The notes under the pieces are model-generated. The model searched no databases. It worked only from the letters and a program-made list of their open reading frames with translations, and was not told the DNA's origin. A program made the translations under genes and the position numbers. From an uncultured Fibrobacteraceae bacterium (lineage in GTDB: Bacteria > Krumholzibacteriota > Krumholzibacteriia > LZORAL124-64-63): a stretch of DNA of 62,662 nt. Below, piece by piece: positions 24,954 through 40,673 of this stretch (position 1 is the stretch's first letter; each line of letters begins with the position of its first letter). The DNA is taken from the NCBI GenBank assembly GCA_964545545.1, contig CAZJGK010000004.1, positions 1 through 62,662 of the forward strand, read 5' to 3'.

Positions 24954-25101
24954 TTCAGGTTAAAGTCTTATGGCTTCCAACCGATCAATGCAGGGAGCGG
25001 GGTATCCGTTGCGGCCCGATTTGTGGATCGAAACAGGGCGTCGTTCCGGTTCGCGGAGCTTGGCAGGGCCTGGAAGCGGAAACAACAATGACGAGGGACC
25101 G

Positions 25102-26784
25102 ATGATTACAACCAAAAACAAGGTTGCCGCGAAACTTCTGGAAGCAGGTTTGATAACCGATGCTGACCTGGCCAAGGCCCAGGAAATCCAGAAGAAGCAA
25201 GGCGGGTCGATAGGTCAGGCCTTGATCAAGGCCGGGGCGGTCGATGAGACCACTCTGACCACCTTCCTGGGCCAGGTCTACAACCTGCCGGTTGTGGATC
25301 TGGACACGGTCCAGGTGGAGTTGGAATGCGTCGATATGGTTCCCGGTGACGTGGCTCGAAAATTCCAGGTGCTGCCGGTGACGCGGCGGGGCAGGGTCCT
25401 GACCGTTGCCATGTCCAACCCCAGCAATATTTTCGCCATCGACGATATCAAGTTCATCACAGGCCTTGATGTTCAGCCTGCCGTGGCTGGCGAAATGGCC
25501 ATCAAGAAATCCATCGACAAGTACTATGCCACCGCAGATTCCCTCACCGAGATCATGGAGGGCATCGAAGCGGATATCGAGGTCGTGGAGGAAGAGGATG
25601 ACGACGACATCACCGGGCAGGAAGGTCAGAACGCGCCGGTGGTCAAGCTCGTCAACACCCTGCTGGCCGAAGCGGTCAAGATGGGCGCCAGCGATATCCA
25701 CATCGAACCCTACGAACGCAATATGCGCGTCCGGTACCGCGTTGACGGTGTGCTGCAGGAGGTCATGGAGCCGCCGATCAAATTGAAGAACGCCATCATC
25801 AGTCGTTTGAAAATCATGTCCGAACTGGACATTGCAGAACGCCGGATTCCCCAGGACGGCCGCATCAAATTGAAGATCGGGAGCAAGAAAATCGATCTGC
25901 GTGTTTCCACCCTGCCGTGCATCTACGGGGAAAAAGTGGTAATGCGTATTCTCGATAAAGGGAATCTGAATCTGGACTTGGGCGATTTCAACATGGAAAA
26001 GGAAGCGATCGCTAATATCTATCACGCCATTGCCCAGCCCTTTGGCATGGTCCTGGTTACCGGTCCCACTGGATCAGGCAAGACCACGACGTTGTATTCC
26101 TGCCTTTCGAAGCTGAACAACCCGGACCTGAACATCATGACGGCCGAAGACCCTGTGGAGTACAACATCGACGGCATCAACCAGGTCCAGGTACGTGAGG
26201 ATGTCGGCTTGACGTTCGCCGCGGCTCTCAAGGCGTTTCTCAGGCAGGATCCCAACATCATCATGGTCGGTGAAATCCGGGACCTGGAAACCGGTGGTAT
26301 TGCCACCAAGGCGGCGCTCACCGGCCACCTGGTGCTCTCGACGCTGCATACCAATGATGCGCCCAGCACCATCAACCGGATGATGGACATGGGGCTGGAG
26401 CCGTTCCTGGTGGCCTCGTCGACCCTGTTGATCATGGCGCAGCGGCTGGTGCGGCGGATCTGTTCGAACTGCAAGGAAGAGATTGAAGTGCCGCCGGATG
26501 CGCTGCGCGATATCGGACTGCCGCCCGGCACGACGGTCTTCGCGGGCAAGGGCTGCGACAAGTGCGGGGGCACGGGATATTCCGGACGTCAGGGGCTCTA
26601 TGAAGTCATGCCCATCACCTCCGAAATACGCGATCTCATCCTGGATCGCGCCGCGACCAGCGAGATCACGAAGATGGCGGTTCAGCAGGGCATGCTGACC
26701 CTGCGTCGGGACGGGCTAATCAAGATCCAGAAGGGCATCACGACCATCGAGGAAGTTTTGCGGGAAACCGCAATAGGGGACTAG
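25102..26784 (+). CDS. pilB: Type IV pilus assembly (extension) ATPase
   Basis: It has a GspE-N domain (LLEAGLITDADLAKAQ), Walker A GPTGSGKTTT, Asp/His boxes, and the tetracysteine motif CSNC...CDKCGGTG. Confidence 0.93.
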   Translation: MITTKNKVAAKLLEAGLITDADLAKAQEIQKKQGGSIGQALIKAGAVDETTLTTFLGQVYNLPVVDLDTVQVELECVDMVPGDVARKFQVLPVTRRGRVLTVAMSNPSNIFAIDDIKFITGLDVQPAVAGEMAIKKSIDKYYATADSLTEIMEGIEADIEVVEEEDDDDITGQEGQNAPVVKLVNTLLAEAVKMGASDIHIEPYERNMRVRYRVDGVLQEVMEPPIKLKNAIISRLKIMSELDIAERRIPQDGRIKLKIGSKKIDLRVSTLPCIYGEKVVMRILDKGNLNLDLGDFNMEKEAIANIYHAIAQPFGMVLVTGPTGSGKTTTLYSCLSKLNNPDLNIMTAEDPVEYNIDGINQVQVREDVGLTFAAALKAFLRQDPNIIMVGEIRDLETGGIATKAALTGHLVLSTLHTNDAPSTINRMMDMGLEPFLVASSTLLIMAQRLVRRICSNCKEEIEVPPDALRDIGLPPGTTVFAGKGCDKCGGTGYSGRQGLYEVMPITSEIRDLILDRAATSEITKMAVQQGMLTLRRDGLIKIQKGITTIEEVLRETAIGD

Positions 26785-26806: not shown

Positions 26807-27877
26807 GTGACTGGAATGCGGGAATTACTCGAGGATATGGTGACCAAGGGTGCCAGCGATCTTCATATTGTGGCGGGTCTGCCCCCTCAGTACCGTATCG
26901 ACGGCAGCATCGTCTCGACAGGGCTGGAAGTCCTGAACGGCGAGGAAACCATGCGGCTGGCCTACAGCATCCTCAACGAGGAACAGAAAAAGCGCTTCGA
27001 GACGAAAAAGGAACTCGATCTTTCCTTCGGGGTGCAGGGGATCAGCCGTTTTCGCGCCAACGTGTTTCTGCAGCGGGGGGTGGTCTCCATGGCCATCCGC
27101 CAGATTCCCTACAAGATCAACACGTTTGAAGAACTTGGTTTGCCTCCGGTGTGCCGCCAGCTAATCCAGCGCACCCATGGCCTGGTCCTGGTGACCGGGC
27201 CGACCGGGAGCGGCAAGTCGACAACCCTGGCGACCATGGTCGACACCATCAACACGTCGCGCAAGGGCCACATCATCACCATCGAGGATCCCATCGAGTT
27301 TGTTCACCAGCACAAGAACTGCATCGTCAACCAGCGCGAAGTGAACAGCGACACCCACAGTTTTCCCGATGCCCTCAAGTATGTACTGCGCCAGGATCCC
27401 GACGTCATCCTGATCGGCGAGATGCGGGACAGGGAGACGATTTCCGCCGCCTTGACCATTGCCGAAACCGGACATCTGGCCATGGCTACCCTGCATACAA
27501 ACAGCACCTTCGAATCGATCAACCGTATCATCGACGTGTTCCCGCCTGAACAACAGAACCAGATACGATCCCAGTTGTCGTTCTGCCTCAATGGGGTCAT
27601 CACGCAGCAACTGCTGCCGAAAGCCAGAGGCGCGGGCCGTGTTCTGGCCCTCGAAGTCATGGTCTGTACCCCGGCCATCAAGTCCATGATCCGGGATGAC
27701 AAGACCCACCAGATCTATGGCCACATGCAGGCCGGGCAGAAGCACGGCATGCAGACCATGAACCAATCGCTCTACCAAGCCGTCATCAACAAATGGATCA
27801 CACTGGAAACGGCCACTGGCCGGAGTTCGGATGTGCAGGAACTGCAGCAGATGCTCGGCCAACCGGTCGTAGTATAA
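26807..27877 (+). CDS. pilT: Type IV pilus retraction ATPase
   Basis: Its size (356 aa) fits PilT. It has GASDLHI, Walker A GPTGSGKST and ATLHTNS. GGGAGG RBS lies 8 nt before GTG 26807. Confidence 0.92.
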   Translation: MTGMRELLEDMVTKGASDLHIVAGLPPQYRIDGSIVSTGLEVLNGEETMRLAYSILNEEQKKRFETKKELDLSFGVQGISRFRANVFLQRGVVSMAIRQIPYKINTFEELGLPPVCRQLIQRTHGLVLVTGPTGSGKSTTLATMVDTINTSRKGHIITIEDPIEFVHQHKNCIVNQREVNSDTHSFPDALKYVLRQDPDVILIGEMRDRETISAALTIAETGHLAMATLHTNSTFESINRIIDVFPPEQQNQIRSQLSFCLNGVITQQLLPKARGAGRVLALEVMVCTPAIKSMIRDDKTHQIYGHMQAGQKHGMQTMNQSLYQAVINKWITLETATGRSSDVQELQQMLGQPVVV

Positions 27878-27899: not shown

Positions 27900-29114
27900 G
27901 TGAGTGCCACAACTTATAACTGGAAAGGCCGGACCAACAAGGGTGAGATCCTGTCCGGGGAATACACGTGCGAGGACCGGAAGGGCGTGGGGGACTACCT
28001 GCGCAAGCGCCGGATCGTGATCACTTCCATCAAGAAGAAGCCGAAGGAAATCCAGCTCGGGTTCCTGAAGAAGACCAAGGTCGGAGTAAAGGACCTTTCG
28101 GTATTTACCCGGCAGTTCGCCACCATGGTCAACGCCGGTCTGCCTTTGGTCCAATGCCTGGACATCCTGAGCCGGCAGCTCGACAAGCCGCATTTCAAGA
28201 TAGTCGTCCAGCAGGTCACCACCGACGTCGAAGGCGGTTCGACCCTGGCCGAGGCCCTCGAGAAACACCCCAAGGTATTCTCGGACCTGTTTGTAAACAT
28301 GATCGCCGCCGGTGAGGCCGGCGGTATCCTGGATGTGATCCTGGGCCGGCTGGCCGTATTCCTGGAAAAGGCCGATGCCCTGCAGCGCAAGGTCAAGGGT
28401 GCCATGACCTATCCCACCATCGTGCTGACGGTGGCAGGCGGTGCCTGCATTTTCATGCTCATGTTCGTGATCCCGGTGTTCGCCAAGATGTTTTCGGATT
28501 TCGGAGGCGTCCTTCCCGCTCCCACGAGGATCGTGATGGGGTTGTCGGATTTCCTGAAGGCGTACTGGTGGGCCTTGGGCGGTGGCGCCGCAATCCTGAC
28601 CTTCGCCTTCAAACGCTATCGTGCGACTCCCAAGGGCAAGATGGTTACTGATCGTCTGGCGCTGCGGATTCCTGTTCTCGGCACGGTGTTGCGCAAGTCT
28701 TCGGTGGCCCGGTTTACCCGCACCCTCGGCACGCTTATCGGCTCCGGGGTGCCCATCCTGCAGGGTCTTGAAATCACCTCCAAGACAGCGGGCAACGCGG
28801 TCATTCAGAAAGCCATCCAGGATACGGCCGTCAGCATCAGTCAGGGCGACACTATTGCCAAGCCGTTGAAGGATAGCGGCGTGTTCCCGCCCATGGTCGT
28901 TCAGATGATCGGGGTCGGGGAGCAGACAGGCGCCCTGGATGAAATGTTGAACAAGATCGCGGATTTCTATGACGACGAAGTCGATTCGGCCGTGGAGGCG
29001 CTCACTGCGGCCATCGAACCCATAATGATCGTGGTCATGGGAACCATGGTTGGCGGTATGCTCGTGGCCATGTATTTGCCGATGTTCAAGATGTCCAGTG
29101 TCGTCGGAAAATGA
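27900..29114 (+). CDS. pilC: Type IV pilus inner-membrane platform protein (GspF family)
   Basis: It has two GspF-type repeats (FTRQFATMVNAGLPL and FTRTLGTLIGSGVPI) and three TM segments. GGAGG RBS precedes GTG 27900. Confidence 0.92.
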   Translation: MSATTYNWKGRTNKGEILSGEYTCEDRKGVGDYLRKRRIVITSIKKKPKEIQLGFLKKTKVGVKDLSVFTRQFATMVNAGLPLVQCLDILSRQLDKPHFKIVVQQVTTDVEGGSTLAEALEKHPKVFSDLFVNMIAAGEAGGILDVILGRLAVFLEKADALQRKVKGAMTYPTIVLTVAGGACIFMLMFVIPVFAKMFSDFGGVLPAPTRIVMGLSDFLKAYWWALGGGAAILTFAFKRYRATPKGKMVTDRLALRIPVLGTVLRKSSVARFTRTLGTLIGSGVPILQGLEITSKTAGNAVIQKAIQDTAVSISQGDTIAKPLKDSGVFPPMVVQMIGVGEQTGALDEMLNKIADFYDDEVDSAVEALTAAIEPIMIVVMGTMVGGMLVAMYLPMFKMSSVVGK

Positions 29115-30862
29115 GCGTGTCCCAGGGTGGGGTCGGTATGCGTCCGGAAAGTGAAATCATCCGGGGCGACGTCCCCAACCTACGCCTGTTGCGCTGGCGG
29201 CTGGGGTTTGCCGTGGTCCTTACCGGCACCTCGGCGGGCATGGTGCTCATGGGACCCCTGCAGGTTACGCTGCCCGGAGTGGTGGTTTCCCTGGGACTGC
29301 TGTACACCACCTTGGCAGCCTGCTGGGCGGCCGCGCTGGTGCCCTTGAACCCCAAGGCCCTTTTGGCCGTACAACTTTCCGCAGACACCCTGGTCATAGG
29401 CCTGCTGGTTCATTTTACCGGCGGGCCGTTCTCCATCCTGCCGCTCGCTTTCTGTTTTCCCATCATGCTCGGGGCCTATTTCCTGGGTTCACGGGGAGCC
29501 ATGACCTTGGCCGGTGCCGCGGCGATTTTTACCGGTGGCGGCCACTTCGGCCTGGCGCTGGGTTGGATGTTGGCCGGGAGTTCCGCTCCGGTGGCCTACC
29601 TGCAGGGCTGGCCCGTCATGGTCACGGCCTTGCATCTGGCGCTGTTCATCTTCACGGGCATGATCAGCGCTTCGCTGGCGCAGAAGCTTACCATGCGCCG
29701 GCGACAGAAACAGCGGAGCGAGGAGATCACCGCCAAGGCGCGCTGCGAGCTGCGCAACATCCTACTGAATATCCGCAGTGGATTGTTGACCGTCGACATC
29801 GGCGGGGTTGTTACCCGCATGAATCCTGCCGCCGAACGTATCCTGGGGCTGAAAGAACATGATGTCCTGGGACAGAATCTGGAACTGATAACCGCCGGCG
29901 GCATGGAGGAACTGGCCCAGGTCGTGTTGCCCATCGCCGCAGGCAGCCCACCCCTGCCCAGAGGGGAAATCCAGGTTGTGAGCAAGAATGGAATCATGCC
30001 CCTGGGGCTCAATGTCAACCCGGTGTTGAGCAACGACGGTCAGCTGGCCGGCGCGATCGTCATCTTCACCGATCTGACCCGGGAAAAGGAAATGACGGCC
30101 CGGATCAGGGAGTCGGATCGCATGGCCGCCGTGGGCGAACTGGCCGCCAGCATCGCCCACGAGATCCGCAATCCCCTGGCCAGTATCCGTGGCAGCGTGG
30201 AGATGCTGGCCGCGGAGCTTGACCTGGAGGGGAACCTCGACCAGTTGTTGAGCCTGGTTTTGAAGGAAAGTGCCAGGGTCAACACCATCATCAACGATTT
30301 TCTCGCCTACTCGAGGATGCGCCCCGTTTTCTTGCGGCGCATTGCCGCTGACGAGTTCATGGTCGAAGTGGAGCTCCAGGCGATCCAGCATGTGGTGGCC
30401 CATGGCGGCAAGGTCGACGTCGAATTCAATTGTCAGCCACAGGACATGGTCATGATGGCCGATCCCGCCCAGCTCACCCAGCTGATACTCAACCTGGTCA
30501 TCAACTCCTGCGAGGCCATGGATTACGCAGGCCGGATTGATCTGGAATTGAGCCTTACGGAGGACGGACACGTGCTGGAAGTCCATGACTCCGGGCCGGG
30601 AATCGATCCGGAAATCCGGAAAGACCTGTTTGCTCCCTTCAAGACCACCAAGGAAAAGGGCACCGGCCTGGGACTGGCCATGGTCGCCCGCATTGCCTCC
30701 GCCCACGGCGGGCACGTGAGCGTGGGCCAAGGTGTATCCGGCGGGGCCATGTTCACGTTCAACTGGCCCTTGCAACCGCCGGTGAGGGAGGAATCCGCCG
30801 AAAATCCTGCATATCCCTCCGTTTCCGCAGAAAATCCTGCCACGTCCGCATTTCAACAGTAA
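29111..30862 (+). CDS. pilS: Sensor histidine kinase, PilS-like (polytopic N terminus, PAS, HisKA, HATPase)
   Basis: ATGA overlap with the pilC stop. It has about 6 N-terminal TM helices, a PAS-like segment, the H-box SIAHEIRNPL, and N/G boxes (NLVINSCEAM, DSGPGI, GTGLGL). Confidence 0.85.
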   Translation: MSVSQGGVGMRPESEIIRGDVPNLRLLRWRLGFAVVLTGTSAGMVLMGPLQVTLPGVVVSLGLLYTTLAACWAAALVPLNPKALLAVQLSADTLVIGLLVHFTGGPFSILPLAFCFPIMLGAYFLGSRGAMTLAGAAAIFTGGGHFGLALGWMLAGSSAPVAYLQGWPVMVTALHLALFIFTGMISASLAQKLTMRRRQKQRSEEITAKARCELRNILLNIRSGLLTVDIGGVVTRMNPAAERILGLKEHDVLGQNLELITAGGMEELAQVVLPIAAGSPPLPRGEIQVVSKNGIMPLGLNVNPVLSNDGQLAGAIVIFTDLTREKEMTARIRESDRMAAVGELAASIAHEIRNPLASIRGSVEMLAAELDLEGNLDQLLSLVLKESARVNTIINDFLAYSRMRPVFLRRIAADEFMVEVELQAIQHVVAHGGKVDVEFNCQPQDMVMMADPAQLTQLILNLVINSCEAMDYAGRIDLELSLTEDGHVLEVHDSGPGIDPEIRKDLFAPFKTTKEKGTGLGLAMVARIASAHGGHVSVGQGVSGGAMFTFNWPLQPPVREESAENPAYPSVSAENPATSAFQQ

Positions 30863-30931
30863 AGAAGCCGGCTGCGGAGCCGATATCCCTCCTGACACCT
30901 TTTGGATCAGACCCGTTGCGAGGAGCATTTC

Positions 30932-32455
30932 ATGGCCCAGGACAGGATATTGGTCGTCGATGATGAGGAATCCATGTGCCAGTACCTCTCCATCCTGTTG
31001 CAGAAGGAAGGGTACACCGTCGAGACCACAAATTCAGCCGCCACGGCCCTGGAGCGTTTTCGCAAGGGAAAATTCAACCTGGTCATGACCGATATCCAGA
31101 TGCCGAAAATGGACGGCATCGAGCTGCTCAAGGAGATCAAGGGCATCGACCCGACCAGTCCGGTCATCATCATGACCGCCTATGCCAGCGAGCAGTCGGC
31201 GATTGATGCGGTAAACCTCGGTGCCTTCTCATACCTGCAAAAGCATTGCAAGAACGACGACATCAAGATGGTTGTCCGCAATGCTCTGGAATTGAACAAG
31301 GCCCGCAGCGAGAACCAGGAACTTCGCCGTGAACTGACGCGGACAAAGAGTCCCAAACAGATCATCGGCAACAGCAGCCGCATACGGTCGGTGTTCAAGA
31401 TGGTGGACAAGATCGCGGGGACCAAAGCCACCGTTCTTATCAACGGGGAAAGCGGAACCGGCAAGGAACTGGTGGCGCAGTCCATCCACCAGCGGAGCAA
31501 CCGCAGCAGTGGTCCCTTCGTGGCCATCAATTGCGGCGCAATCCCCGAGACACTCCTGGAAAGCCAGCTCTTCGGACACGTCAAGGGTTCGTACACGGGC
31601 GCCGATCGCGACCACGATGGATTCTGCAGGCAAGCCGAGGGTGGGACGATCTTTCTGGATGAAATCGGGGAAACGCCCCTGTCCATCCAGGTCAAGCTTT
31701 TGCGGATGCTCCAGGAGCGCGAGATCTACCCGGTGGGAAGCAGCTGCCCGGTGAAGGTCGATGTGCGGGTGATTGCCGCCACCAACCGCGACCTGGAAGA
31801 CGAGGTCAGCCAGGGAAACTTCCGCACGGACCTTTATTACCGGCTCAATGTCATTCCCCTGCTGCTGCCCGCCTTGCGGGAACGCGCCGACGATATTCCC
31901 CTGCTGGTGGATCACTTCCTGAAGCGCTGCCTGGGATCCGAGTATACCGGCGGTATAGCCAATTTCATGGACGAAGCGACTCTGCGCATCCTGTCGGCCT
32001 ATGAATGGCCAGGCAATGTGCGCGAACTTGAGAATGTTATCGAACGGGCCGTGATCATTCATGAAGGCAACAGGATCACCGCTGGTGATCTCCCCGAACA
32101 CATTCGCGCGATGGGGCCGGCGGGGACCACGTCCTCCACCCTGCAGGTTGGGGGAAATGTGACGTTGGATGATCTGGAGCAGGCCCACATTCTGGGCGTC
32201 CTGGAGTCCACCGATGGGGCGCGCAAGTTGACCTCGGAAATCCTGGGAATCAATGCCTCCACCCTTTACCGCAAGCTGAAGAAGTATGGCCTGGGGGACG
32301 AGGAGGCTGAAGAAGAATTGGTGGACCAGACGGTGGAGGTTCCCGGGGCGGAACTCCTTGATGCTGTCGAAAGTGTCATGCGCGAAGCCGACGGAGAGTC
32401 CGCTGCCACCGCACAAGAGAGAGTTGATGCCGATGCCGCAGAGCTTTCGGTGTGA
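30932..32455 (+). CDS. pilR: Sigma-54-dependent response regulator, PilR-like (NtrC family)
   Basis: It has a receiver domain (ILVVDDEESM...MTDIQMP), an AAA+ domain with GESGTGKE, the sigma-54 contact loop GSYTGA (31586-31603), ESQLFGH, and a Fis-type HTH (INASTLYRKLKKYG). GAGGAG RBS precedes the start. Confidence 0.9.
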   Translation: MAQDRILVVDDEESMCQYLSILLQKEGYTVETTNSAATALERFRKGKFNLVMTDIQMPKMDGIELLKEIKGIDPTSPVIIMTAYASEQSAIDAVNLGAFSYLQKHCKNDDIKMVVRNALELNKARSENQELRRELTRTKSPKQIIGNSSRIRSVFKMVDKIAGTKATVLINGESGTGKELVAQSIHQRSNRSSGPFVAINCGAIPETLLESQLFGHVKGSYTGADRDHDGFCRQAEGGTIFLDEIGETPLSIQVKLLRMLQEREIYPVGSSCPVKVDVRVIAATNRDLEDEVSQGNFRTDLYYRLNVIPLLLPALRERADDIPLLVDHFLKRCLGSEYTGGIANFMDEATLRILSAYEWPGNVRELENVIERAVIIHEGNRITAGDLPEHIRAMGPAGTTSSTLQVGGNVTLDDLEQAHILGVLESTDGARKLTSEILGINASTLYRKLKKYGLGDEEAEEELVDQTVEVPGAELLDAVESVMREADGESAATAQERVDADAAELSV

Positions 32456-32589: not shown

Positions 32590-32605
32590 TGGCATGACCA
32601 TTGCA
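32590..32605 (+). promoter_or_regulatory. Sigma-54 -24/-12 promoter upstream of the first pilin gene
   Basis: TGGCATGACCATTGCA matches TGGCAC-N5-TTGCW with correct GG/GC spacing. It lies 93 nt upstream of the pilin start and directly downstream of pilSR. Confidence 0.75.
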
Positions 32606-32697
32606 TAGTTGGTTCAGCCATAGGCAGGTGGATGGGGAGGGGCGTAATGTTATCTCCCGGATTCAAGGTCCGCGGACCATTGCAAGGAGGACAGGTA

Positions 32698-33120
32698 GTG
32701 TTGAATCGTAAGGGCTTTACTCTGATTGAGCTGATGATCGTCGTCGTGATCATCGGTATCCTGGCTGCTATCGCCATTCCTAATTTCATCAGCATGCAGG
32801 ACCGGGCCAAGGAAGCCAAGGTCAAGGGCGCGGCCCATACTCTGCAGCTGGCCGCCGAGGACTACGCCGTGCGCAATGACGGCATCTACTCGGATGCCCA
32901 GGCAGATGTGGGTGCTTTGCTGCCCCAGGATCCCGGCGGCGGCAACAACCTGCAGAACGCCTTCACCGGTCTGTACACCGAGCCCGTGTGGGCTGGTGCG
33001 GCTGGCGCTTCGGGTCAGGTTGGCATCGTGGCCATCGCCCAGGGCGGTGTGAACGTGGGTTACACGATCACCGGTTTCGGCAAGACGGCAAACGTCATTT
33101 CCTTGACCAGCGGCCAGTAA
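32698..33120 (+). CDS. pilA: Type IVa pilin (major pilin candidate 1)
   Basis: AAGGAGG RBS precedes the start. The short leader VLNRKG is followed by FTLIELMIVVVIIGILAAIAIPNF (class III signal, Glu5). The protein is 140 aa and has no cysteine. Confidence 0.92.
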   Translation: MLNRKGFTLIELMIVVVIIGILAAIAIPNFISMQDRAKEAKVKGAAHTLQLAAEDYAVRNDGIYSDAQADVGALLPQDPGGGNNLQNAFTGLYTEPVWAGAAGASGQVGIVAIAQGGVNVGYTITGFGKTANVISLTSGQ

Positions 33121-33140
33121 TCTCTGTCGCAAGGGTATCG

Positions 33141-33181
33141 CGGGCGGAGCTGGCTTGAGCCGGTTCCGCCCGTTGCCTTTC
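33141..33181 (+). terminator. Hairpin (possible attenuating terminator) after the first pilin gene
   Basis: CGGGCGGA (33141-33148) pairs with TCCGCCCG (33165-33172). It is followed by TTGCCTTTCT. The T-tract is weak. Confidence 0.4.
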
Positions 33182-33191
33182 TGGGAGCGTC

Positions 33192-33647
33192 ATGCGCAAC
33201 TTGACCAGATTCTCCAAATTCATCAGGATGCCCAGCCGGGACGACACTCTGCTTGCTGTGGGTGTCCTGGTGCTGGTCAGTTCGCTCCTGATGCTGGTGG
33301 GGATCCCGGTCTTGAACCATCTGGAAGCCCGGGCGCGGCTCGTGGCCGTCAAGGGCAATGCGGCCACCTTGCAACTGGCCGTCGAGAGTTTTGCCAGGCA
33401 ACACATGGGGAACTATCCCACGGACGTTGCGGAAGTCCTGACATATTTGCCCCAGGCCAAGGCGCCCACGAACCCTCTGGACGGCAAACCACTTCAATTT
33501 GCCCCCAGGCCCGGTGATGTGACCTATACCTCCCTGGGCCAAGGTTGTGGGTATCGGATCAAAGCCTGGATATATGGACCCCAGGAGAAATGCCGGGAAT
33601 TAATTACGCTCAAGGGCGGATCGGCGATGACAGGAGGAGTGCCGTGA
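33192..33647 (+). CDS. Pilin-like protein with a non-canonical N terminus
   Basis: It sits between two pilin genes. A hydrophobic helix TLLAVGVLVLVSSLLMLVGIPVL is followed by GNAATLQLAVESFA, which parallels AHTLQLAAEDYA in the pilins. It has no G/FTLxE cleavage motif and carries two Cys (GCGY...EKC). Its stop overlaps the next start (GTGA). Confidence 0.6.
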   Translation: MRNLTRFSKFIRMPSRDDTLLAVGVLVLVSSLLMLVGIPVLNHLEARARLVAVKGNAATLQLAVESFARQHMGNYPTDVAEVLTYLPQAKAPTNPLDGKPLQFAPRPGDVTYTSLGQGCGYRIKAWIYGPQEKCRELITLKGGSAMTGGVP

Positions 33648-34075
33648 CCAAGGCGAAAACGAAAGCGATAGCCCGAGGATTTACCATCATTGAACTCATG
33701 ATCGTCGTGGTCATCATCGGCTTGCTGGTGACCATCGCCCTGCCGAATTTCATTTCCATGAAAGACCGCGCCCGCGAAGCGGGAACCCGGGAGAACGCCC
33801 ATACCCTCCAGCTGGCCGCGGAGGATTTCGCATCGGGCAACGATGGCGTTTATTCCACCAACGCGGCGGATATCACCCCGCTGTTGCCCGGCGCAGGCAT
33901 GATGATCAATTCCTTTACCGGGGTCAACAGCGAGCCCCAGTTCGGCGCCGCCGCCGGCACTCCGGGTCAGATCGGTCTGGAATCCGTGATCAACGGGGGC
34001 GTGGTGTCCGGATACAAGATCACCGGCTTCGGACGTGCGGATCTCATCGTCACCCTGGTGACCGCGGGCAACTGA
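33644..34075 (+). CDS. Type IVa pilin (paralogue, major pilin candidate 2)
   Basis: AGGAGG RBS precedes GTG 33644. The leader VTKAKTKAIARG is followed by FTIIELMIVVVIIGLLVTIALPNF. It is a paralogue of the first pilin (AHTLQLAAEDFA, ITGFG) and has no cysteine. Confidence 0.9.
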   Translation: MTKAKTKAIARGFTIIELMIVVVIIGLLVTIALPNFISMKDRAREAGTRENAHTLQLAAEDFASGNDGVYSTNAADITPLLPGAGMMINSFTGVNSEPQFGAAAGTPGQIGLESVINGGVVSGYKITGFGRADLIVTLVTAGN

Positions 34076-34101: not shown

Positions 34102-34117
34102 TGGCATCCGTGTTGCA
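34102..34117 (+). promoter_or_regulatory. Sigma-54 -24/-12 promoter upstream of the ABC-transporter/pilD unit
   Basis: TGGCATCCGTGTTGCA has the same core and spacing as the pilA promoter. It lies about 75-80 nt upstream of the ABC ATPase start. Confidence 0.7.
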
Positions 34118-34190: not shown

Positions 34191-35222
34191 GTGAGTATGC
34201 AGCAGGTGGCCATAAACGAGACAATCCCCGGGATACATCCCCTTTCTCCCGAGCACGCCGCGCAAGAGGGTGTACCGGCCTCCGCAAACCGCGACGTTAT
34301 TCCTGCCCTGGAGGTTGTCGACCTGACGCGGGATTTCCGGACGGGTTTCCGGAGACAGCGCCAGCGGGGAATTGAGGGCGTGTCTTTCTCGGTTCGACCA
34401 GGTGTGATCTTCGCGCTGCTGGGCCATAACGGCGCGGGGAAAACCACCACCATCAACTGCATCCTGGATCTTGTTCATGCCCAGGCCGGGCAAGTGAGGA
34501 TTTTCGGCCGGAACCACGCCGAACCGGGGGCGCGGGTGGCCGTCGGATATTTGCCGGAACGTCCGTATTTCTTCGAGCATCTCAGTGGCCGGGAATTGTT
34601 GCGTTTCTACGCCGATTTGCTGCACATGCCCAAACAGGAGAGTGAAGGCAGGATCCAGGAAATCCTGGAGGTGGTCGGCCTCCAGCATGATGCGAAACGG
34701 CGGTTGCGCAAATATTCCAAGGGAATGCTGCAACGGATCGGTCTGGCCCAGGCCCTGCTGGGCGACCCCCGCCTGTTGATTCTCGACGAGCCCATGTCCG
34801 GGCTGGACCCCGTCGGTCGGCGGCAGGTCCGGGAGTTGCTGCAGGGGCTGCGGGACCGCGGCAAGACCATCATCCTGTCTTCCCATATCGTTCCGGACAT
34901 CGAAATGCTGGCTGATGAAGTGGCCATCCTGAAGCGGGGTCGGCTGGTGGCGCAACAGCGGATGGCCGCTTTGAACCGGAAGACCGTCTATGAAGTCCAG
35001 CTGGTGGCCTCCCATGACCGGGATGATCCTGCCCTGGCCGACTATGTGGTGCGCGCGCACGGCGGAACCCTGCAGGTCGAGGTGGGGGGCGTCGATGAAT
35101 TGCGTGAATTGCTGACGGCCTGCGCCCATCGCAGCTGGAAAGTCCTGGGTGTGGGCACGCGCCGTTCAGGCCTCGAGGAACTCTTCATGAGCACCCTCTC
35201 CCAGGGGGAGGATTTGCCATGA
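34191..35222 (+). CDS. ABC transporter ATP-binding protein (PilH-like position)
   Basis: Walker A is GHNGAGKTT, the signature-like sequence is YSKGMLQRIGLAQAL, and Walker B is LLILDEP. The start is GTG 34191 or ATG 34197. Confidence 0.88.
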   Translation: MSMQQVAINETIPGIHPLSPEHAAQEGVPASANRDVIPALEVVDLTRDFRTGFRRQRQRGIEGVSFSVRPGVIFALLGHNGAGKTTTINCILDLVHAQAGQVRIFGRNHAEPGARVAVGYLPERPYFFEHLSGRELLRFYADLLHMPKQESEGRIQEILEVVGLQHDAKRRLRKYSKGMLQRIGLAQALLGDPRLLILDEPMSGLDPVGRRQVRELLQGLRDRGKTIILSSHIVPDIEMLADEVAILKRGRLVAQQRMAALNRKTVYEVQLVASHDRDDPALADYVVRAHGGTLQVEVGGVDELRELLTACAHRSWKVLGVGTRRSGLEELFMSTLSQGEDLP

Positions 35223-35989
35223 TCCGCACACTCACCACCCTGGCCGTGGGCACATTCCGGGAAACGGTGCGGGATCGCCTGTTCTATCTGGTCGGCATGT
35301 TCGGCTTCATCATGCTGGCCAGCACGGCCGTGCTGTCACCCCTGACCATCGGGGCCCAGAGCAAGATCATGACCGACGTGGGTCTGGCGGCCATGTCCGC
35401 CTTTGGGCTGCTGGTGGTCATGCTCGTGGGCAGCAACATGATCCGCAAGGAAGTGGACAAGGGCACCATCGTCACCATTCTGGCCAAGCCGGTGGGCAGG
35501 CGCCAATACCTGGTGGGCAAGTTTCTGGGACTGAATCTCACCCTGGCCTGTATGCTCGGGCTCATGGGCGCCCTGTTCTTCATGGTGCTGCTGGTAGCGC
35601 CCGGGGCGTTTTCGCCGCGTTACCTGAGCGCCATCTACATGACCCTGTTGGAAATGACCGTGATCAATGCGGTGGTGGTTCTGTTCAGCACCTGCGTGTC
35701 GGCTCCCTTGGCGGCGATCGCGACGCTCGGTGTGTTTCTCATGGGCCATCTGAGCCAGTCCATCAGGGATTTCGGCAGCATGCAGGGAACGCACCTGCAG
35801 CAGACGATTTTCGATGCCGTCTATTACCTGGTGCCGAACCTGGAAATCTTCAATGTGCGCGGCGCCGTAGTGCACGGCGAGACCATCAGCGCCCACCAGC
35901 TTGTGCTGGCCACGGTTTACGGACTGGGATATGCCGGACTGCTGTTGATCCTCTCCAGCGCCGTGTTCCAGCGCAAGGGACTGCGATGA
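35219..35989 (+). CDS. ABC-2-type transporter permease (PilI-like position)
   Basis: ATGA overlap with the ATPase stop. It has about six hydrophobic TM segments and its size fits an ABC-2 permease. Confidence 0.8.
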   Translation: MIRTLTTLAVGTFRETVRDRLFYLVGMFGFIMLASTAVLSPLTIGAQSKIMTDVGLAAMSAFGLLVVMLVGSNMIRKEVDKGTIVTILAKPVGRRQYLVGKFLGLNLTLACMLGLMGALFFMVLLVAPGAFSPRYLSAIYMTLLEMTVINAVVVLFSTCVSAPLAAIATLGVFLMGHLSQSIRDFGSMQGTHLQQTIFDAVYYLVPNLEIFNVRGAVVHGETISAHQLVLATVYGLGYAGLLLILSSAVFQRKGLR

Positions 35990-36708
35990 TGCAGCGTCTG
36001 CGTACCGGCACCATGGCCAGGGTGGTGGGGGCGGCCCTGCTGCTGGTGATCGTGATCGGATCCCAGCTCAGCTTCGACACCATGACGCGTGCGGGCGATT
36101 CCCAGGATCATCTCTATTTTCCTTCCGGCCGGTTTTTGACCGAGGCCGCCGTGGGATACAGGGAAGCGGTTGCCGACTATCTGTGGTTCCGGTTCATCCA
36201 GTATTACGGGGCTTTTGCCAAGGGACATAACGATCTGCGGTATTTCGATCTATTGATCGAGGGCATCACGAGGTTGGATCCCCGTTTTGTCGAGGCTTAT
36301 CACTTTGCCTCCCTGGTGGCGTGGTCGGACCTGGGGAGCTTCCCCAAGTCGCTGGACCTCCTCAAGCAGGGCATTCTCCACAATCCCGATGTCGCCAAGC
36401 TTCCTTTCCAGATCGGGTTCACCTATTACGTTTTCTACAAGGACTATCCGCGGGCGACTTTCTGGTTCGAGGCCGCCGCCAAATGTTCCGATGCTACCGA
36501 CCGGGAACGGCGCTTTGCCGCTTTTGCCAGTCACCGGGCCGGGGATGAGAGGGTTTCCCTGGAATTGTGGAAAGCCCTGCTGGATTCCACGGACAATCCC
36601 CAGATGATCCAACTGGCCCACAAGATGATCCGTGAGATCACGGCCCGGATCCAGGTTTCGGAGCGGGCAGTCGGGAATGGCGTGGGATCGGTTCAGGAGC
36701 AGCAATGA
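35986..36708 (+). CDS. Membrane-anchored helical-repeat (TPR-like) protein of unknown function
   Basis: ATGA overlaps occur at both ends. It has an N-terminal TM (VVGAALLLVIVIGSQL) followed by helical repeats rich in aromatic residues (YLWFRFIQYYGAF, FTYYVFYKDYPRATFWFEAAAK). Confidence 0.65.
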   Translation: MMQRLRTGTMARVVGAALLLVIVIGSQLSFDTMTRAGDSQDHLYFPSGRFLTEAAVGYREAVADYLWFRFIQYYGAFAKGHNDLRYFDLLIEGITRLDPRFVEAYHFASLVAWSDLGSFPKSLDLLKQGILHNPDVAKLPFQIGFTYYVFYKDYPRATFWFEAAAKCSDATDRERRFAAFASHRAGDERVSLELWKALLDSTDNPQMIQLAHKMIREITARIQVSERAVGNGVGSVQEQQ

Positions 36709-37526
36709 TCAAACAAATCTTTTGTGCCCAGACCATGGTGGCCGGTTTGTCAGGGGGGACGGTGCTGGCCGCCTATGTGTGGTCCGGTGTGCTGGCCCTG
36801 GGCGCCTGCCTGGGAAGTTTCTCCAACGTTCTGGTCTATCGCCTGCCGCGCAACCTGAGCATTGTGGGCCCGCGGTCCTTCTGCCCCCAGTGCCGAACCA
36901 CGGTGGCATGGTATGACAACATTCCCGTCTTGAGCTGGGTACTGCTGCGCGGCCGGTGTCGGCATTGCCGCGCCAGGATTTCCCTCCGCTATCCACTTCT
37001 GGAGGCCGCCGGTGCGTTGACCCTGGCTCTGGGGCTGCTGCGTTTCGGCTGGACCGTCCACGGTCTGGCCGCCGGGGTGCTGCTCTTGTTGTTGCTGGTC
37101 ATCGCCGTGGTTGACTGGGAGCACATGGTCATTCCCCATACGCTGACAGTCGCCGGTACGGTGCTTGGTCTGGCCGCATCCCTGAAGAGTACTCCGGGTC
37201 CCGTGGATGCGTTGCTGGGAATGGCTTGCGGTGCCGGGATCATCCTCGTTGTTTCCTACGGCTACAAACTGGTGCGCGGCCAGGTGGGCATGGGGGGCGG
37301 GGATGTCATGATGATGGGGATGCTGGGGACCTTTACCGGACCCTGGGGCGTTTTCGCCGTGCTGTTTGCCGGCGCGTTGACCGGCACCCTGTATGCTTTC
37401 CTGTACGGTAGCCGCGTTGATGATGGTGCCGCAAAGCTTCCTTTCGGCACCTTTCTGGCCCTGGGAGGGGGTGTTGTTTATTTCTTCGGGCCGGAAATTC
37501 TTGCCTGGTATCTGAATATTTTCTGA
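36705..37526 (+). CDS. pilD: Prepilin peptidase / N-methyltransferase (A24 family)
   Basis: It has the zinc-binding motif CPQC...CRHCRARI, YPLLE, catalytic Asp contexts (VVDWEH, GMGGGDVMMMGMLG), and is polytopic. Confidence 0.92.
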   Translation: MIKQIFCAQTMVAGLSGGTVLAAYVWSGVLALGACLGSFSNVLVYRLPRNLSIVGPRSFCPQCRTTVAWYDNIPVLSWVLLRGRCRHCRARISLRYPLLEAAGALTLALGLLRFGWTVHGLAAGVLLLLLLVIAVVDWEHMVIPHTLTVAGTVLGLAASLKSTPGPVDALLGMACGAGIILVVSYGYKLVRGQVGMGGGDVMMMGMLGTFTGPWGVFAVLFAGALTGTLYAFLYGSRVDDGAAKLPFGTFLALGGGVVYFFGPEILAWYLNIF

Positions 37527-37679: not shown

Positions 37680-37751
37680 GGTTGCCCCCGAGGGTAACCC
37701 TTGGTACCGGCTCAATCCGGCATAACGCACGAACAGCAAGGCAGGCTTGAC

Positions 37752-38909
37752 ATGTTCGGATTTCTCAACCAGAAGCGGAAATCACTCATAGGCATGGACA
37801 TAGGGTCCAATGTCGTCAAGTGCCTGCGTCTAGACCTTACCGGTCTGCGCCCGACGCTGACGCACTTCGGCATGGCAAACTTACCGCCCGAGGCCATTGT
37901 CGACGGCGAAATCATGGACCGGGAACTCGTGATCGAAGCCATTCGGGAAGCGGCGGACAAGGCTGAATTGCCTAATGATCCCGTTGCCAGCGCCGTGGCC
38001 GGCCGGGCGGTCATCGTCAAGAAAATCGTCATGGACAAGATGAGCGAGGAAGATGCCAGGGAAGCCATCTATTGGGAGGCGGAACAACATGTCCCCTTCG
38101 ACATCGATGACATCACCCTGGATTTTCAGATTCTCCAGGATGACATCGGCGCGGACCAGATGGAACTGCTGCTGGTGGCGGCCAAGAAGGACATGATTCT
38201 CGGCTACGCGGAATTGATCCGCGACGCCGGCTTCAACCCCCTGGTGATCGATGTGGCCTCCTTCGCAAACCAGAATACCTGGGAGTACATCGCCACTCAC
38301 AGCAAAGACTCTTCCTCTGACGAAGAGGGCGAAAACTCCGCTCCGAAAGACGGATCCGAAGAGGACGAGTTCAACGAGGAAACCGGGGAAAAGCTGGAGA
38401 TGGAAAGCGGGGAGACCGTGGCTCTGCTTGATGTCGGCGGCGGCGTGACCAACGTCCACATCATCAAGAACCACATTCCCTGCTTCACCCGTGACCTGCC
38501 CCTGGGCATCACCCATTTCAGCGAGGAATTCCAGAAGCAGCTGGGGCTGACCTACGAAACGGCTGCCCGGGTTGCGCGGGGCGAGACCGAGGGCGTGGAT
38601 GCTCAACTGGTCACCGAGATCGTGCGCTCCGTGGGATCCGAAATCTACGACGGTCTTGAACCCAGTCTTTCCTATCTGAAATCCTCGGGAGAAATCGAAG
38701 GCATAGACCGCATCGTCATGAGCGGCGGAGGCACCCACCTGCCGGGTTTGCTTGCCTATATGGCCGAGCAGTATGGGGTGCCCTGCGAGGTCTCCGATCC
38801 TCTGTCGGTCCTGGACTATGACCCTGGGTTATTTGCCGAGGGTGAGGCGGAGGAACTCAGCCCGTTGCTGACCGTAAGTGTCGGGCTTGCCTTGAGAGAG
38901 GGGGTCTGA
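37752..38909 (+). CDS. pilM: Type IV pilus assembly protein PilM (actin-like ATPase fold)
   Basis: Motifs include LIGMDIGSNVVKCL, LLDVGGGVTNV and IVMSGGGTHLPGL. It contains an acidic insertion of about 40 aa (38298-38417). Confidence 0.9.
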   Translation: MFGFLNQKRKSLIGMDIGSNVVKCLRLDLTGLRPTLTHFGMANLPPEAIVDGEIMDRELVIEAIREAADKAELPNDPVASAVAGRAVIVKKIVMDKMSEEDAREAIYWEAEQHVPFDIDDITLDFQILQDDIGADQMELLLVAAKKDMILGYAELIRDAGFNPLVIDVASFANQNTWEYIATHSKDSSSDEEGENSAPKDGSEEDEFNEETGEKLEMESGETVALLDVGGGVTNVHIIKNHIPCFTRDLPLGITHFSEEFQKQLGLTYETAARVARGETEGVDAQLVTEIVRSVGSEIYDGLEPSLSYLKSSGEIEGIDRIVMSGGGTHLPGLLAYMAEQYGVPCEVSDPLSVLDYDPGLFAEGEAEELSPLLTVSVGLALREGV

Positions 38910-38911
38910 AG

Positions 38912-39490
38912 ATGATACGGATCAATCTTCTGCCGCGTGATGAAATCGTTACCCGGCGCGCCTGGAATATTCCCCAGGTGGGAAACTTCGCCCCCCTGGT
39001 GCTGGTCGTGCTCGCCCTGGTGACATGCGGTGCGGTTCATCAGATACAGACCAGCCACATCAAGAGTCTGCAGCGGACCGTCGCCGAGGAAGAAATGGAG
39101 ACCCGCAAGCTGGCTCCGGAAATCGCCAAAATCAAGCGCCTGAACCAGCAACGCAAGGATCTGAACGACCGGCTGGACGTCATCACGGATCTGGATCGTG
39201 ACCGCTACTTCCGGGTCCATATCATGGATGAGTTGAACCGGAGTCTGCCGGATAACATGTGGTTGACCAGCTGCCAAGAAAATGGGGATGGAAGCTATTC
39301 CGTCGAGGGCGTTACGTTTTCCAACTTCCTGGTCAGTGATTTTCTCCAGAATATCAATAACAGTCCCTGGTTTGCGGGCGTGAGCCTGCTGGTCGCCGAA
39401 AAAGGCGAGATCGGGGATGTGCGTGTCATCAAGTTCAAGGCCCAGGCCCGGGCGGCCAGGCCTGCCGTGGACACCGGGTTGGAAGGCTAA
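38912..39490 (+). CDS. pilN: Type IV pilus assembly protein PilN
   Basis: It has the canonical N terminus MIRINLLP, one TM segment and a coiled coil, and its position follows pilM. Confidence 0.88.
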   Translation: MIRINLLPRDEIVTRRAWNIPQVGNFAPLVLVVLALVTCGAVHQIQTSHIKSLQRTVAEEEMETRKLAPEIAKIKRLNQQRKDLNDRLDVITDLDRDRYFRVHIMDELNRSLPDNMWLTSCQENGDGSYSVEGVTFSNFLVSDFLQNINNSPWFAGVSLLVAEKGEIGDVRVIKFKAQARAARPAVDTGLEG

Positions 39491-39502
39491 GGAAGGACCG
39501 TC

Positions 39503-40195
39503 ATGGATATCGATGTCAAGGATCCCAAGTTCCTCCGCTGGGCCGGTTCCGTGCTCGTGGTGCTGGTGGTGGTTCCGATGTACTTCATGTCGGCGACCTT
39601 TCCCTTCACCTATAAATCCGAGCAGGCTGTTTCCCAACAGCTCGAGGCGAAGCATCAGAAGCTGAGCCAGGATCTCGAAAAGGCCCGTTTGCTGGTGCGC
39701 AATCTCGACCGCGTCGAGCAGGAGTACAACACCCTGCATGAGCAATGGAAGGTTGCCAAGACGTTGTTGCCCGATGAGAACCAGATGCCGGATTTGTTGC
39801 GGAAGGTCACGGCTGCCGGTCAACAGTCCGGTGTCGCCTTTACCCTCTTCAAGCCGCAGATCCCGACTCCGCAGGGGTTTTATGCCAACAACCCCATCGA
39901 GGTTTCCATCGAGGGCGGCTACCACCAGACCGGCATCTTCTTGAGCCGGTTGGCGAACCTCAACCGGATCGTCAACGTTTCCAATCTCAACCTGCAGGGT
40001 GAGATCAACCAGAAGGAAAAGGCTTTTACCGTCAAGACGGACCTCCTTCTGACGGCCTATACCCTGAGTCCCAACCAGGGAAACCATCCTGAACTTGAAG
40101 GCCGTGGCGACCGCACGTTGGCCCAGTCTGAAGGCGACAAAAAGGCTGCCGGGCCCAACAGCGCTGCGCACGCCGGAACTCAAGGGGGATCGTGA
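39503..40195 (+). CDS. pilO: Type IV pilus assembly protein PilO
   Basis: It has a single TM (SVLVVLVVVPMYF), a coiled coil and a ferredoxin-like C terminus (PIEVSIEGGYHQTGIFLSRLANL), and its position fits pilO. Confidence 0.85.
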   Translation: MDIDVKDPKFLRWAGSVLVVLVVVPMYFMSATFPFTYKSEQAVSQQLEAKHQKLSQDLEKARLLVRNLDRVEQEYNTLHEQWKVAKTLLPDENQMPDLLRKVTAAGQQSGVAFTLFKPQIPTPQGFYANNPIEVSIEGGYHQTGIFLSRLANLNRIVNVSNLNLQGEINQKEKAFTVKTDLLLTAYTLSPNQGNHPELEGRGDRTLAQSEGDKKAAGPNSAAHAGTQGGS

Positions 40196-40671
40196 TGAAG
40201 AGATCAGTTTCCATGCCCTGTAAAATCTTGCTGGCGTTGGCCGGGGTGCTGTTGATTGCGGTTCCCGTGGTCATGGCGGCTGATCCGTCACCGGCACCGG
40301 ATCAGGGCTCGGTATCCCCATCCCAGGTTTCCCGCGACCGCATCAATGCGATCCGGGACAATGAGTTTTTCTATCAGTCCTATGGCCGGCAGGATCCCTT
40401 CAAGATCCTGGTTGCCGGCGATTATGAACAATCGGCACCTGGCGATCTGCTCGATATCAACAGTGCCCGTCTGGTGGGCGTGATGTGGGGCCAGGACGAT
40501 CGTTTCGCACTGGTCGAGAACGGGGACGGTTTTGGCTATATCCTGCGTGTCGGCGATTCCATCCAGAACGGTCGGGTCGTCAGCGTCCGCAAGCATTCAC
40601 TCACCGCGCGGGTCACTTTGTACGGGATCACCAACAAGGTGGTCCTCAATCTGGAAAAATCGGAGGGTTGA
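40195..40671 (+). CDS. pilP: Type IV pilus assembly protein PilP
   Basis: TGATG overlap with pilO. It has a signal/anchor followed by a beta-sandwich segment (LVGVMWGQDDRFALVENGDGFGYILRVGDSIQNGRVVSV). Confidence 0.8.
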   Translation: MKRSVSMPCKILLALAGVLLIAVPVVMAADPSPAPDQGSVSPSQVSRDRINAIRDNEFFYQSYGRQDPFKILVAGDYEQSAPGDLLDINSARLVGVMWGQDDRFALVENGDGFGYILRVGDSIQNGRVVSVRKHSLTARVTLYGITNKVVLNLEKSEG

Positions 40672-40673
40672 TC

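Follow-up and report, generated by a model that had tools for sequence, protein, structure and literature searches.

In type IV filament biology, proteins with the pilin fold are assumed to act after cleavage by the prepilin peptidase. Peptidases of the PilD type require a glycine at position -1 of the class III signal, and a glutamate at position +5 (Glu5) is needed for docking of the subunit in the fibre and for fibre assembly. Accessory proteins encoded beside major pilin genes are known (TfpY/FimB, glycosyltransferases), and these are not pilins. Here we describe a gene for a pilin homolog without the class III signal, located between two prepilin genes, pilA-1 and pilA-2, in the type IVa pilus (T4aP) cluster of an uncultured bacterium assigned to Krumholzibacteriota. 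The window, that is, the whole stretch of DNA analysed, has 62,662 nucleotides (contig CAZJGK010000004.1), and its DNA was detected in salt-marsh metagenomes. The product of this gene (below, the middle gene and the middle protein) probably remains unprocessed and retained in the membrane. By analogy, and tentatively, the middle gene may be read as encoding a pilin-derived accessory or adaptor protein of the T4aP system. No account of a conserved pilin paralog without the class III signal in bacteria came up in the literature, as far as its open-access text is concerned.

Among the described systems, TfpY would be the nearest functional parallel and archaeal FlaF the nearest structural and evolutionary one. 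TfpY is encoded after pilA behind a terminator, is anchored in the membrane, and binds PilA and minor pilins without being part of the fibre; for this low-abundance protein, the role proposed in Pseudomonas is that of an adaptor priming assembly (PMC11841053). The location directly after the major pilin gene and behind a terminator is shared by the TfpY, TfpZ and TfpX proteins (FimB-like; Pseudomonas, Dichelobacter, Neisseria, Acinetobacter; PMC11841053). The middle gene has the same layout, as a hairpin separates it from pilA-1 in the window (Table 1) and in all related loci. A membrane anchor with a periplasmic globular domain is also predicted for the middle protein, as in the TfpY-like proteins. 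However, the latter have three transmembrane helices and a non-pilin periplasmic fold and come from Pseudomonadota, whereas the middle protein has one transmembrane helix, is homologous to pilins, and comes from Krumholzibacteriota. It is not a member of the TfpY/FimB family, and the parallel is one of analogy only.

FlaF is a monotopic membrane protein whose archaellin domain carries no class III signal (PMC4425475). FlaF and FlaG (ArlF and ArlG) resemble the middle protein in combining a domain similar to the filament subunit with an uncleavable N-terminal helix, and in being encoded together with the filament genes. Their site of action is the base of the machine, and not the filament. On the other hand, they are archaeal proteins of a rotary archaellum that bind the S-layer, and their archaellin domain is a beta-sandwich, whereas the head of the middle protein is a three-strand sheet. 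A profile search of PDB sequences with the middle family (E<=1) revealed no similarity to FlaF or FlaG, and the middle protein is not a homolog of either.

In M. xanthus, pilA, pilG, pilH and pilI form an operon with an ABC transporter (PMC3546991, PMC3724824). The window contains a complete T4aP cluster of the Myxococcus/Geobacter type, with the genes pilB-T-C-S-R, the pilin genes, and ABC-ABC2-240aa-pilD-pilMNOPQ (Pfam and NCBIfam scans). It has nearly the same gene order as the cluster of M. xanthus and Geobacter (pilB-T-C-S-R-A-G-H-I-D-M-N-O-P-Q), and the two have in common the pilSR genes, a sigma-54-dependent pilin gene, and an ABC transporter encoded between the pilin gene and pilD. Moreover, among solved structures PilA-1 is best matched by M. 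xanthus PilA, by virtue of its N-terminal half. Unlike in M. xanthus and Geobacter, the pilins considered here are small (140 aa) and cysteine-free and have a GspG-like head; the cluster contains an additional signal-less pilin-like gene and a variable extra pilin gene; and the ABC genes have a sigma-54 site of their own.

Finally, the minor pilins of type IVa systems and the pseudopilins of type II secretion systems (FimU/PilE, GspG-K) share fold and ancestry with the middle protein, including the kink at Pro+22 and the small antiparallel sheet. Like genes of minor pilins, the middle gene lies in a T4aP cluster beside the major pilin gene and is expected to be expressed at a low level, and its orthologs in a sister clade include genuine prepilins. 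In contrast to minor pilins and pseudopilins, the middle family lacks Gly-1, the hydrophobic residue at +1 and Glu+5, and has a longer basic tail and an invariant Gly+7.

Homology and fold of the middle protein

The three open reading frames (ORFs) of the pilin region have the coordinates and sequences described in a first-pass annotation made from the sequence alone, and the TGA of the middle gene overlaps the GTG of pilA-2 (GTGA, 33644-33647). The segments listed there as shared, AHTLQLAAED(Y/F)A, ITGFG and GNAATLQLAVESFA, are present in the alignment. The middle protein can be aligned with PilA-1 along the full length, including the C-terminal GY.I..(F/Y)G strand, with 33% identity. The profile of its orthologs matches one made from 27 flanking pilins, and the match extends from the membrane helix through the last strand (hhalign 99.0%, E 2.4e-18, 119 columns). 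Given the full-length identity and the hhalign match, the resemblance to pilins is not due to chance.

In the AF2 model of the middle protein (pLDDT 85), a long helix (residues 16-70) is followed by a short one (79-83) and by strands 110-115, 120-128 and 134-143. The same order of elements, a helix and three strands, is seen in the model of PilA-1. By both its AF2 fold and the homology detected by hhalign, the middle protein belongs to the pilin fold superfamily. No Pfam family matched it, and the only NCBIfam candidates were GspG (E 0.025) and ComGC (E 0.1), both far under the cut-offs.

The ATG of the middle gene is preceded, at a distance of 5 nt, by a Shine-Dalgarno-like element GGGAG. The encoded protein is predicted to be a bitopic inner-membrane protein with a periplasmic pilin-like head. 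Its hydrophobic segment comprises about 22 residues and, as read from the sequence, is accompanied by neither an AxA motif nor a lipobox; thus processing by signal peptidase I or as a lipoprotein is unlikely.

Loss of the class III signal

Where pilins have ...G-FTLIELMI..., the middle protein reads ...PSRDD-TLLAVGV..., with DD-TLLAV replacing GF-TLIEL. The Gly(-1), Phe(+1) and Glu(+5) sites are occupied by Asp (Asp17), Asp and Ala, respectively, and there is no match to N_methyl or to TIGR02532/IV_pilin_GFxxxE; the absence of the signature from the window protein, reported in the first-pass annotation, is real. A canonical motif might have been hidden at another start or in another frame, which would have undermined that observation. 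However, no in-frame start lies upstream of position 33192, and scanning the 62.6-kb window for the motif in all six frames yielded just two canonical prepilin motifs, those of PilA-1 and PilA-2. A hidden canonical signal in the middle ORF is thus rejected.

The loss is common to the family. The register of 45 distinct members is gapless from the membrane helix to the NAAT(L/V)QLA segment, so that motif positions can be counted directly. Position -1 is P, S, D or A in 43 members and Gly in two; position +1 is D, T, N, S or E and never hydrophobic (0/45); position +5 is A, C, G, S, T or W and never Glu (0/45). In contrast, Gly+7 is invariant (45/45) and Pro+22 is present in 43 of the 45 members. 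The N-terminal tail is basic and longer than the leader of pilins, with a median of 22 aa and a range of 11-81 aa. None of the features that define the class III signal is present in the middle protein, which is not to be filed as a prepilin or a minor pilin. Because Gly-1, required by PilD, and Glu5, required by the fibre, are absent together with the other class III features and with any N_methyl or TIGR02532 match, neither processing nor polymerisation is expected. The conservation of Gly+7 among small residues suggests a dedicated helix-helix contact in the membrane.

One could still imagine the middle protein as a component of the fibre, either a special minor pilin priming the tip or the final subunit, with which the fibre would be anchored or terminated at its base; it would be incorporated without classical processing or after a non-canonical cleavage. 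Indeed, it retains the full pilin fold with the Pro+22 kink, two family members do have Gly at -1, and tip pseudopilins such as GspK naturally lack Glu5. Besides, no minor-pilin genes were seen in the 62-kb window, and canonical prepilins occupy the orthologous position in the sister clade. However, the counts given above leave 43 of 45 members without Gly-1 and none with a hydrophobic +1 or Glu+5, the long basic tail would have to be pulled through the membrane, and Gly+7 with its small neighbours suggests a different, stable packing of the helix. We consider a role in the fibre unlikely.

The two cysteines of the middle protein, presented in the first-pass annotation as a distinguishing feature, turned out to be peculiar to the window sequence. 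Among 36 distinct periplasmic domains of the family, two cysteines occur in one and no cysteine at all in 26, and a conserved disulfide is rejected.

Conservation of the pilin gene and the middle gene

A genome scan produced 13 loci. Most of them are from metagenome-assembled genomes (MAGs) that bear the label Candidatus Krumholzibacteriota or Krumholzibacteriia; two others carry the name uncultured Fibrobacteraceae, and one is unclassified. The synteny is kept in 15 loci of the clade of the window and in six loci of a sister clade. The order in all relatives is a sigma-54 site, the first pilin gene, a GC-rich hairpin, the middle-type gene, from zero to two further pilin genes, another sigma-54 site, and the ABC genes. 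Orthologs of the middle protein are 55-65% identical to it, with one at 38%; the range in the same synteny is 38-67%. An exhaustive profile search yielded 10 clusters (at the 50% identity level) of true orthologs with E<1e-30.

The three genes do not form a conserved triad, as the first-pass annotation had it. The middle gene is always present and is followed by one pilin gene in most loci, by two in L007, and by none in L008 and L015, where the ABC ATPase gene comes next; the copy number of PilA-2 in the related loci is 0-2. The absence of pilA-2 from L015 rests on about 270 nt only, and L008 is the clean case. Since the number of PilA-2 genes varies whereas the middle gene is constant, the conserved unit is the pair of the major pilin gene and the middle gene. 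Positions 3000-3192 of L015, at the end of a short MAG contig, contain an inverted self-duplication, which is probably an assembly artefact.

Comparison with close relatives gives dN/dS of 0.11-0.24 for the middle gene at dS of 1.4-2.3, and thus the gene is under purifying selection. With this selection, the synteny in every related locus examined and the homology to the flanking pilins, the middle ORF is a real gene. The mean amino acid identity across the clade is 79% for PilA-1, 58% for PilA-2 and 49% for the middle protein. This lowest value, as well as the loss of the defining processing motif, would fit a decaying and functionless relic of a duplicated pilin gene. However, no locus has a disrupted reading frame, dN/dS is low, invariant positions are spread over both the helix and the head, the gene is kept even where PilA-2 is missing, and the orthologs form the 10 clusters mentioned above. 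These observations already largely refute the relic explanation, and it can hardly be correct. Given a real and conserved gene, its homology to pilins and the loss of the motif throughout the family, the most economical reading is the one proposed at first pass, an uncleaved pilin mimic retained in the membrane.

Promoters, hairpin and transcripts

The pattern TGGCAY-N5-TTGCW of sigma-54 promoters has two matches in 62.6 kb, compared to 0.1 expected. One of them lies upstream of pilA-1 and the other one between pilA-2 and the ABC ATPase/pilD operon (Table 1). A site upstream of the first pilin gene was found in nearly every related locus, the exception being L020, which begins about 50 nt before its pilin gene. 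The second site, after the last pilin-like gene, is kept in all related loci. As all sites lie either ahead of pilA-1 or past the last pilin gene, the middle gene has no sigma-54 site of its own. The operon of the ABC transporter and the peptidase may also be controlled by an enhancer-binding protein, for which PilR is a candidate.

The hairpin between pilA-1 and the middle gene has a folding energy of -42.8 kcal/mol (z -4.4), and none of 200 shuffled sequences was as stable. It was missed by a simple terminator scan, its T tract being interrupted, and was revealed by folding. The distance from the hairpin to the ATG of the middle gene is about 16 nt in the window and about 20-50 nt across the loci. 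A GC-rich hairpin is found at the same place in 19/19 related loci, with a stem of 13-18 bp in 18 of them and, in L009, a bulged one that appears in the minimum free energy fold only. The stem sequences differ among the loci, and often the 3' arm continues as a T tract. This structure is a probable intrinsic terminator or attenuator. A 566-nt metatranscriptome contig of a relative covers positions 32655-33154 only, that is, approximately the interval between the start expected for the sigma-54 promoter and the hairpin. As a single weak datum, it is consistent with a pilA-1 mRNA that is mostly monocistronic.

Metatranscriptome contigs from aquifer, sediment and salt marsh pile up very deep at positions 32720-32783 and 33680-33743, on the 60-nt stretch encoding FTLIELMIVVVIIGILAAIAIP. 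These are transcripts of many unrelated pilin genes, and expression calls in this region need the 3' halves of the genes.

The middle gene is directly downstream of pilS-pilR and inside the PilR-dependent unit. One possibility, a variant of the mimic listed in the first-pass annotation, is that the middle protein engages PilS as a decoy or a co-sensor and sets the PilR/sigma-54 output, in which case its level would report read-through from the pilA-1 promoter. In P. aeruginosa, PilS senses pilins within the inner membrane (PMC6058289). However, the transmembrane segment is the part of the middle protein that has diverged most from PilA-1, and both Glu5 and the conserved pilin N-terminus have been lost. 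Kilmury and Burrows are said to have demonstrated in 2016 that these two features are needed for PilS signalling. The missing Glu5 weakens this variant, and we regard it as distinctly unlikely.

A further candidate role is that of an accessory or substrate-recognition factor of the adjacent ABC transporter (PilH/PilI-like and the 240-aa protein). In M. xanthus, pilA and pilH flank pilG, whose product is annotated as an accessory factor of an ABC transporter (PMC3546991), and PilGHI were reported to be needed for pilin export (PMC3724824). The middle gene is similarly placed between the genes of the major pilin and the ABC ATPase, and it is directly adjacent to the ABC genes in L008, L015 and the whole sister clade. 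On the other hand, in every locus a sigma-54 promoter lies between the middle gene and the ABC genes, and the 240-aa protein is an equally good candidate for PilG. We find this role improbable.

Sister clade and origin of the middle gene

The second tier of the profile search consisted of proteins with a middle-type head domain in which NAAT is replaced by NAHT. They are encoded in the same cluster, in the order sigma-54 site, pilin gene, hairpin, position-2 gene, sigma-54 site, ABC genes, and there is no third pilin gene. Some position-2 genes of this sister clade encode canonical prepilins, namely P0160 (GWTLVE), P0022 (GWNLAE), P0026 and P0158 (both GFGLAE), and P0073 (GFTLAE). The position-2 proteins P0020, P0159, P0018, P0021 and P0024 are degenerate. 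Since both canonical and degenerate forms are present in the sister clade, the gene beside the major pilin gene probably encoded a cleavable pilin ancestrally. Cleavable, half-degenerate and fully uncleavable forms are seen at the same locus in different lineages, and judging by the observed distribution, the class III signal probably disappeared on two or more occasions. The hypothesis that PilA-2 compensates for the loss of the signal at position 2 is not supported, as there is no third pilin gene in L008, L015 and the loci of P0024 and P0159.

Possible function of the middle protein

The function that we infer for the middle protein follows from its anatomy and from analogy. The middle gene would descend from a cleavable second pilin, and a low level of the protein would be produced by read-through of the pilA-1 terminator. 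The protein would be neither cut by PilD nor polymerised, and would stay in the inner membrane as an N-in/C-out bitopic protein exposing its pilin-like head in the periplasm. With its pilin-like helix and head, it might bind the major pilin and/or PilA-2, or components of the machine. In this way it could promote or tune the start of pilus assembly, acting on the pilin pool or on initiation.

A number of observations weigh against a pilin-derived adaptor of this kind. Foldseek produced no significant match of the middle model in PDB. However, the same search with a genuine pilin, PilA-1, likewise produced nothing better than weak matches, Thermus PilA5 (E 0.02) and EpsG, and thus the negative result carries little weight. 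The profile search of PDB sequences with the middle family (E<=1) retrieved no chain of pilins, FlaF or FlaG. Counts of positively charged residues do not discriminate between the two topologies, with K+R of 3.2 and 3.1 on the two sides of the membrane segment, and the N-in orientation rests on homology to prepilins. The architecture of TfpY/FimB, three transmembrane segments with a mixed-sheet and an antiparallel-sheet domain, is not reproduced by a single transmembrane segment and a three-strand head. The coverage of the middle gene by the examined metatranscriptome contigs is zero, and the RNA-run index contains no run holding this gene. Finally, the canonical forms of the sister clade mean that the ancestral protein could enter the fibre.

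A more far-reaching version of the membrane-retained adaptor would make the middle protein a bacterial counterpart of ArlF/ArlG, with a single candidate phylum having more than once turned a pilin into a part of the T4aP machine that is permanently anchored in the membrane. In that case it could be a base anchor, a fibre terminator, or an adaptor between the pilin and the platform. This version is rather doubtful.

The middle family thus presents a pilin-fold protein that is under selection across a candidate phylum and yet is not a normal substrate of the peptidase. The forms observed at this locus constitute a natural series for asking what the role of a membrane-locked pilin is and how machine components evolve from filament subunits, as was proposed for FlaF and FlaG. 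Genes of this type escape searches based on N_methyl or PilFind and are now labelled hypothetical.

The flanking pilins

Both flanking pilins have canonical class III signals, MLNRK-G/FTLIELM in PilA-1 and ...ARG/FTIIELM in PilA-2, and both are matched by N_methyl (E 5.7e-10 and 1.1e-05, respectively) and by TIGR02532 in the Pfam and NCBIfam scans. Neither contains a single Cys, as observed at first pass. The two proteins are 54% identical. An AGGAGG sequence sits 6 nt before the GTG of pilA-2. PilA-1 has the attributes of a type IVa major pilin, namely a short basic leader, G/FTLIE, the N_methyl match, and a gene in a T4aP cluster under PilSR and sigma-54; it is the probable major pilin. Its N-terminal 65 aa are almost invariant across the clade. 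Among solved structures, its closest relatives are M. xanthus PilA (8tj2), the Geobacter pilin, Thermus PilA5 and GspG. The AF2 model of PilA-1 (pLDDT 91.8) contains helices 9-59 and 68-74 and strands 108-115, 118-127 and 132-139.

The C-terminal disulfide-bonded D-region is absent from both pilins. However, the lack of Cys is a trait of the whole related pilin family (34/35), and a disulfide-bonded D-region is typical of some T4a pilins only; pilins of the GspG, Geobacter, Thermus and Gram-positive types do not have one. Small, cysteine-free and GspG-like, PilA-1 and PilA-2 are ordinary type IVa prepilins, and the missing cysteines are unremarkable. They are not members of the GspG family itself (TIGR01710), as they score 52.4 and 42.1 bits against the cut-off of 88.85, and the genomic context is pilBTC-pilMNOPQ rather than gsp.

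The 5' ends of the two pilin genes are about 75% identical over the first 60-90 nt, and not 80 percent as estimated at first pass. The suggested recombination between these ends is unlikely, as the longest exact shared run is 11 nt.

In several PilA-1 orthologs (L001 5505-5930, L011 392-817, L013 3401-3826, L002 5527-5928), the loop ahead of the second strand contains an insertion VDPDG(D/N)GV(N/P)DGY. It resembles the calcium-binding loop DxDxDG, which GspG-type pseudopilins use instead of a disulfide. PilA-1 of the window has IAQGGVNVGY in this place.

In comparisons with L003 and L004, dS of pilA-1 is 0.44-0.46, four to five times lower than that of the middle gene (1.9-2.3). This suggests either that the codons of a very highly expressed gene are under strong constraint or that pilA-1 was recently exchanged between lineages.

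Outside the window, the PilA-1-type head is found in proteins of 250-740 aa with lipoprotein signals (P0019, P0025, P0029, P0035, P0049, P0050, P0057, P0059). Proteins of the P0019 type consist of two to six tandem head domains (...ENPFTG..TEP..G.A..PGE.GY....GY.I.GFG...) without the N-terminal pilin helix. Thus non-pilin proteins of the surface or the periplasm reuse the head domain of the PilA-1 family as a repeat module.

Gene cluster

The features of the cluster are listed in Table 1. The order of the genes for the ABC ATPase, the ABC-2 permease, the 240-aa protein and PilD is the same in all related loci. No minor-pilin or PilY1-like genes could be recognised anywhere in the 62-kb window, and no Rfam family matched in it.

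Table 1. Features of the type IVa pilus cluster in the window
Feature	Position	Strand	Comment
pilB	24970-26784	+	Pfam; hits for pilB/pilT/pilC among T2SSE, MshEN, T2SSF
pilT	26807-27877	+	Pfam, as for pilB
pilC	27900-29114	+	Pfam, as for pilB
PilS-like PAS histidine kinase	29111-30862	+	Pfam
PilR-like sigma-54 activator	30902-32455	+	Pfam; directly upstream of the pilin region
Sigma-54 type -24/-12 element TGGCATGACCATTGCA	32590-32605	+	93 nt ahead of pilA-1; putative promoter
pilA-1	32698-33120	+	GTG start; 140 aa; prepilin
GC-rich hairpin	33138-33175	+	Folding; 15-17 bp stem, loop TTGA, then CCTTTCT
Middle gene	33192-33647	+	ATG start; 151 aa; pilin homolog without class III signal
pilA-2	33644-34075	+	GTG start; 143 aa; prepilin
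Second sigma-54 type element TGGCATCCGTGTTGCA	34102-34117	+	Between pilA-2 and the ABC ATPase/pilD operon
ABC ATPase	34191-35222	+	Pfam and NCBIfam
ABC-2 permease	35219-35989	+	Pfam and NCBIfam
240-aa protein	35986-36708	+	No family match in Pfam/NCBIfam
Prepilin peptidase PilD	36705-37526	+	Pfam and NCBIfam
pilM, pilN, pilO, 159-aa pilP-position ORF, pilQ secretin	37701-42038	+	Pfam

The 240-aa protein may be the counterpart of M. xanthus PilG. It has one N-terminal hydrophobic segment, and all related loci encode a protein of 235-240 aa at this place, after the ABC-2 permease and before PilD.

The ORF in the position of pilP (40192-40671, 159 aa) has no Pfam match and overlaps the longest pilQ ORF (40485-42038) by about 190 nt. 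The real start of pilQ is probably further downstream than that of the longest ORF.

Directly upstream of pilB there is an 878-aa ORF without a family match (21895-24531), preceded by a gene for a 543-aa TPR protein (20195-21826).

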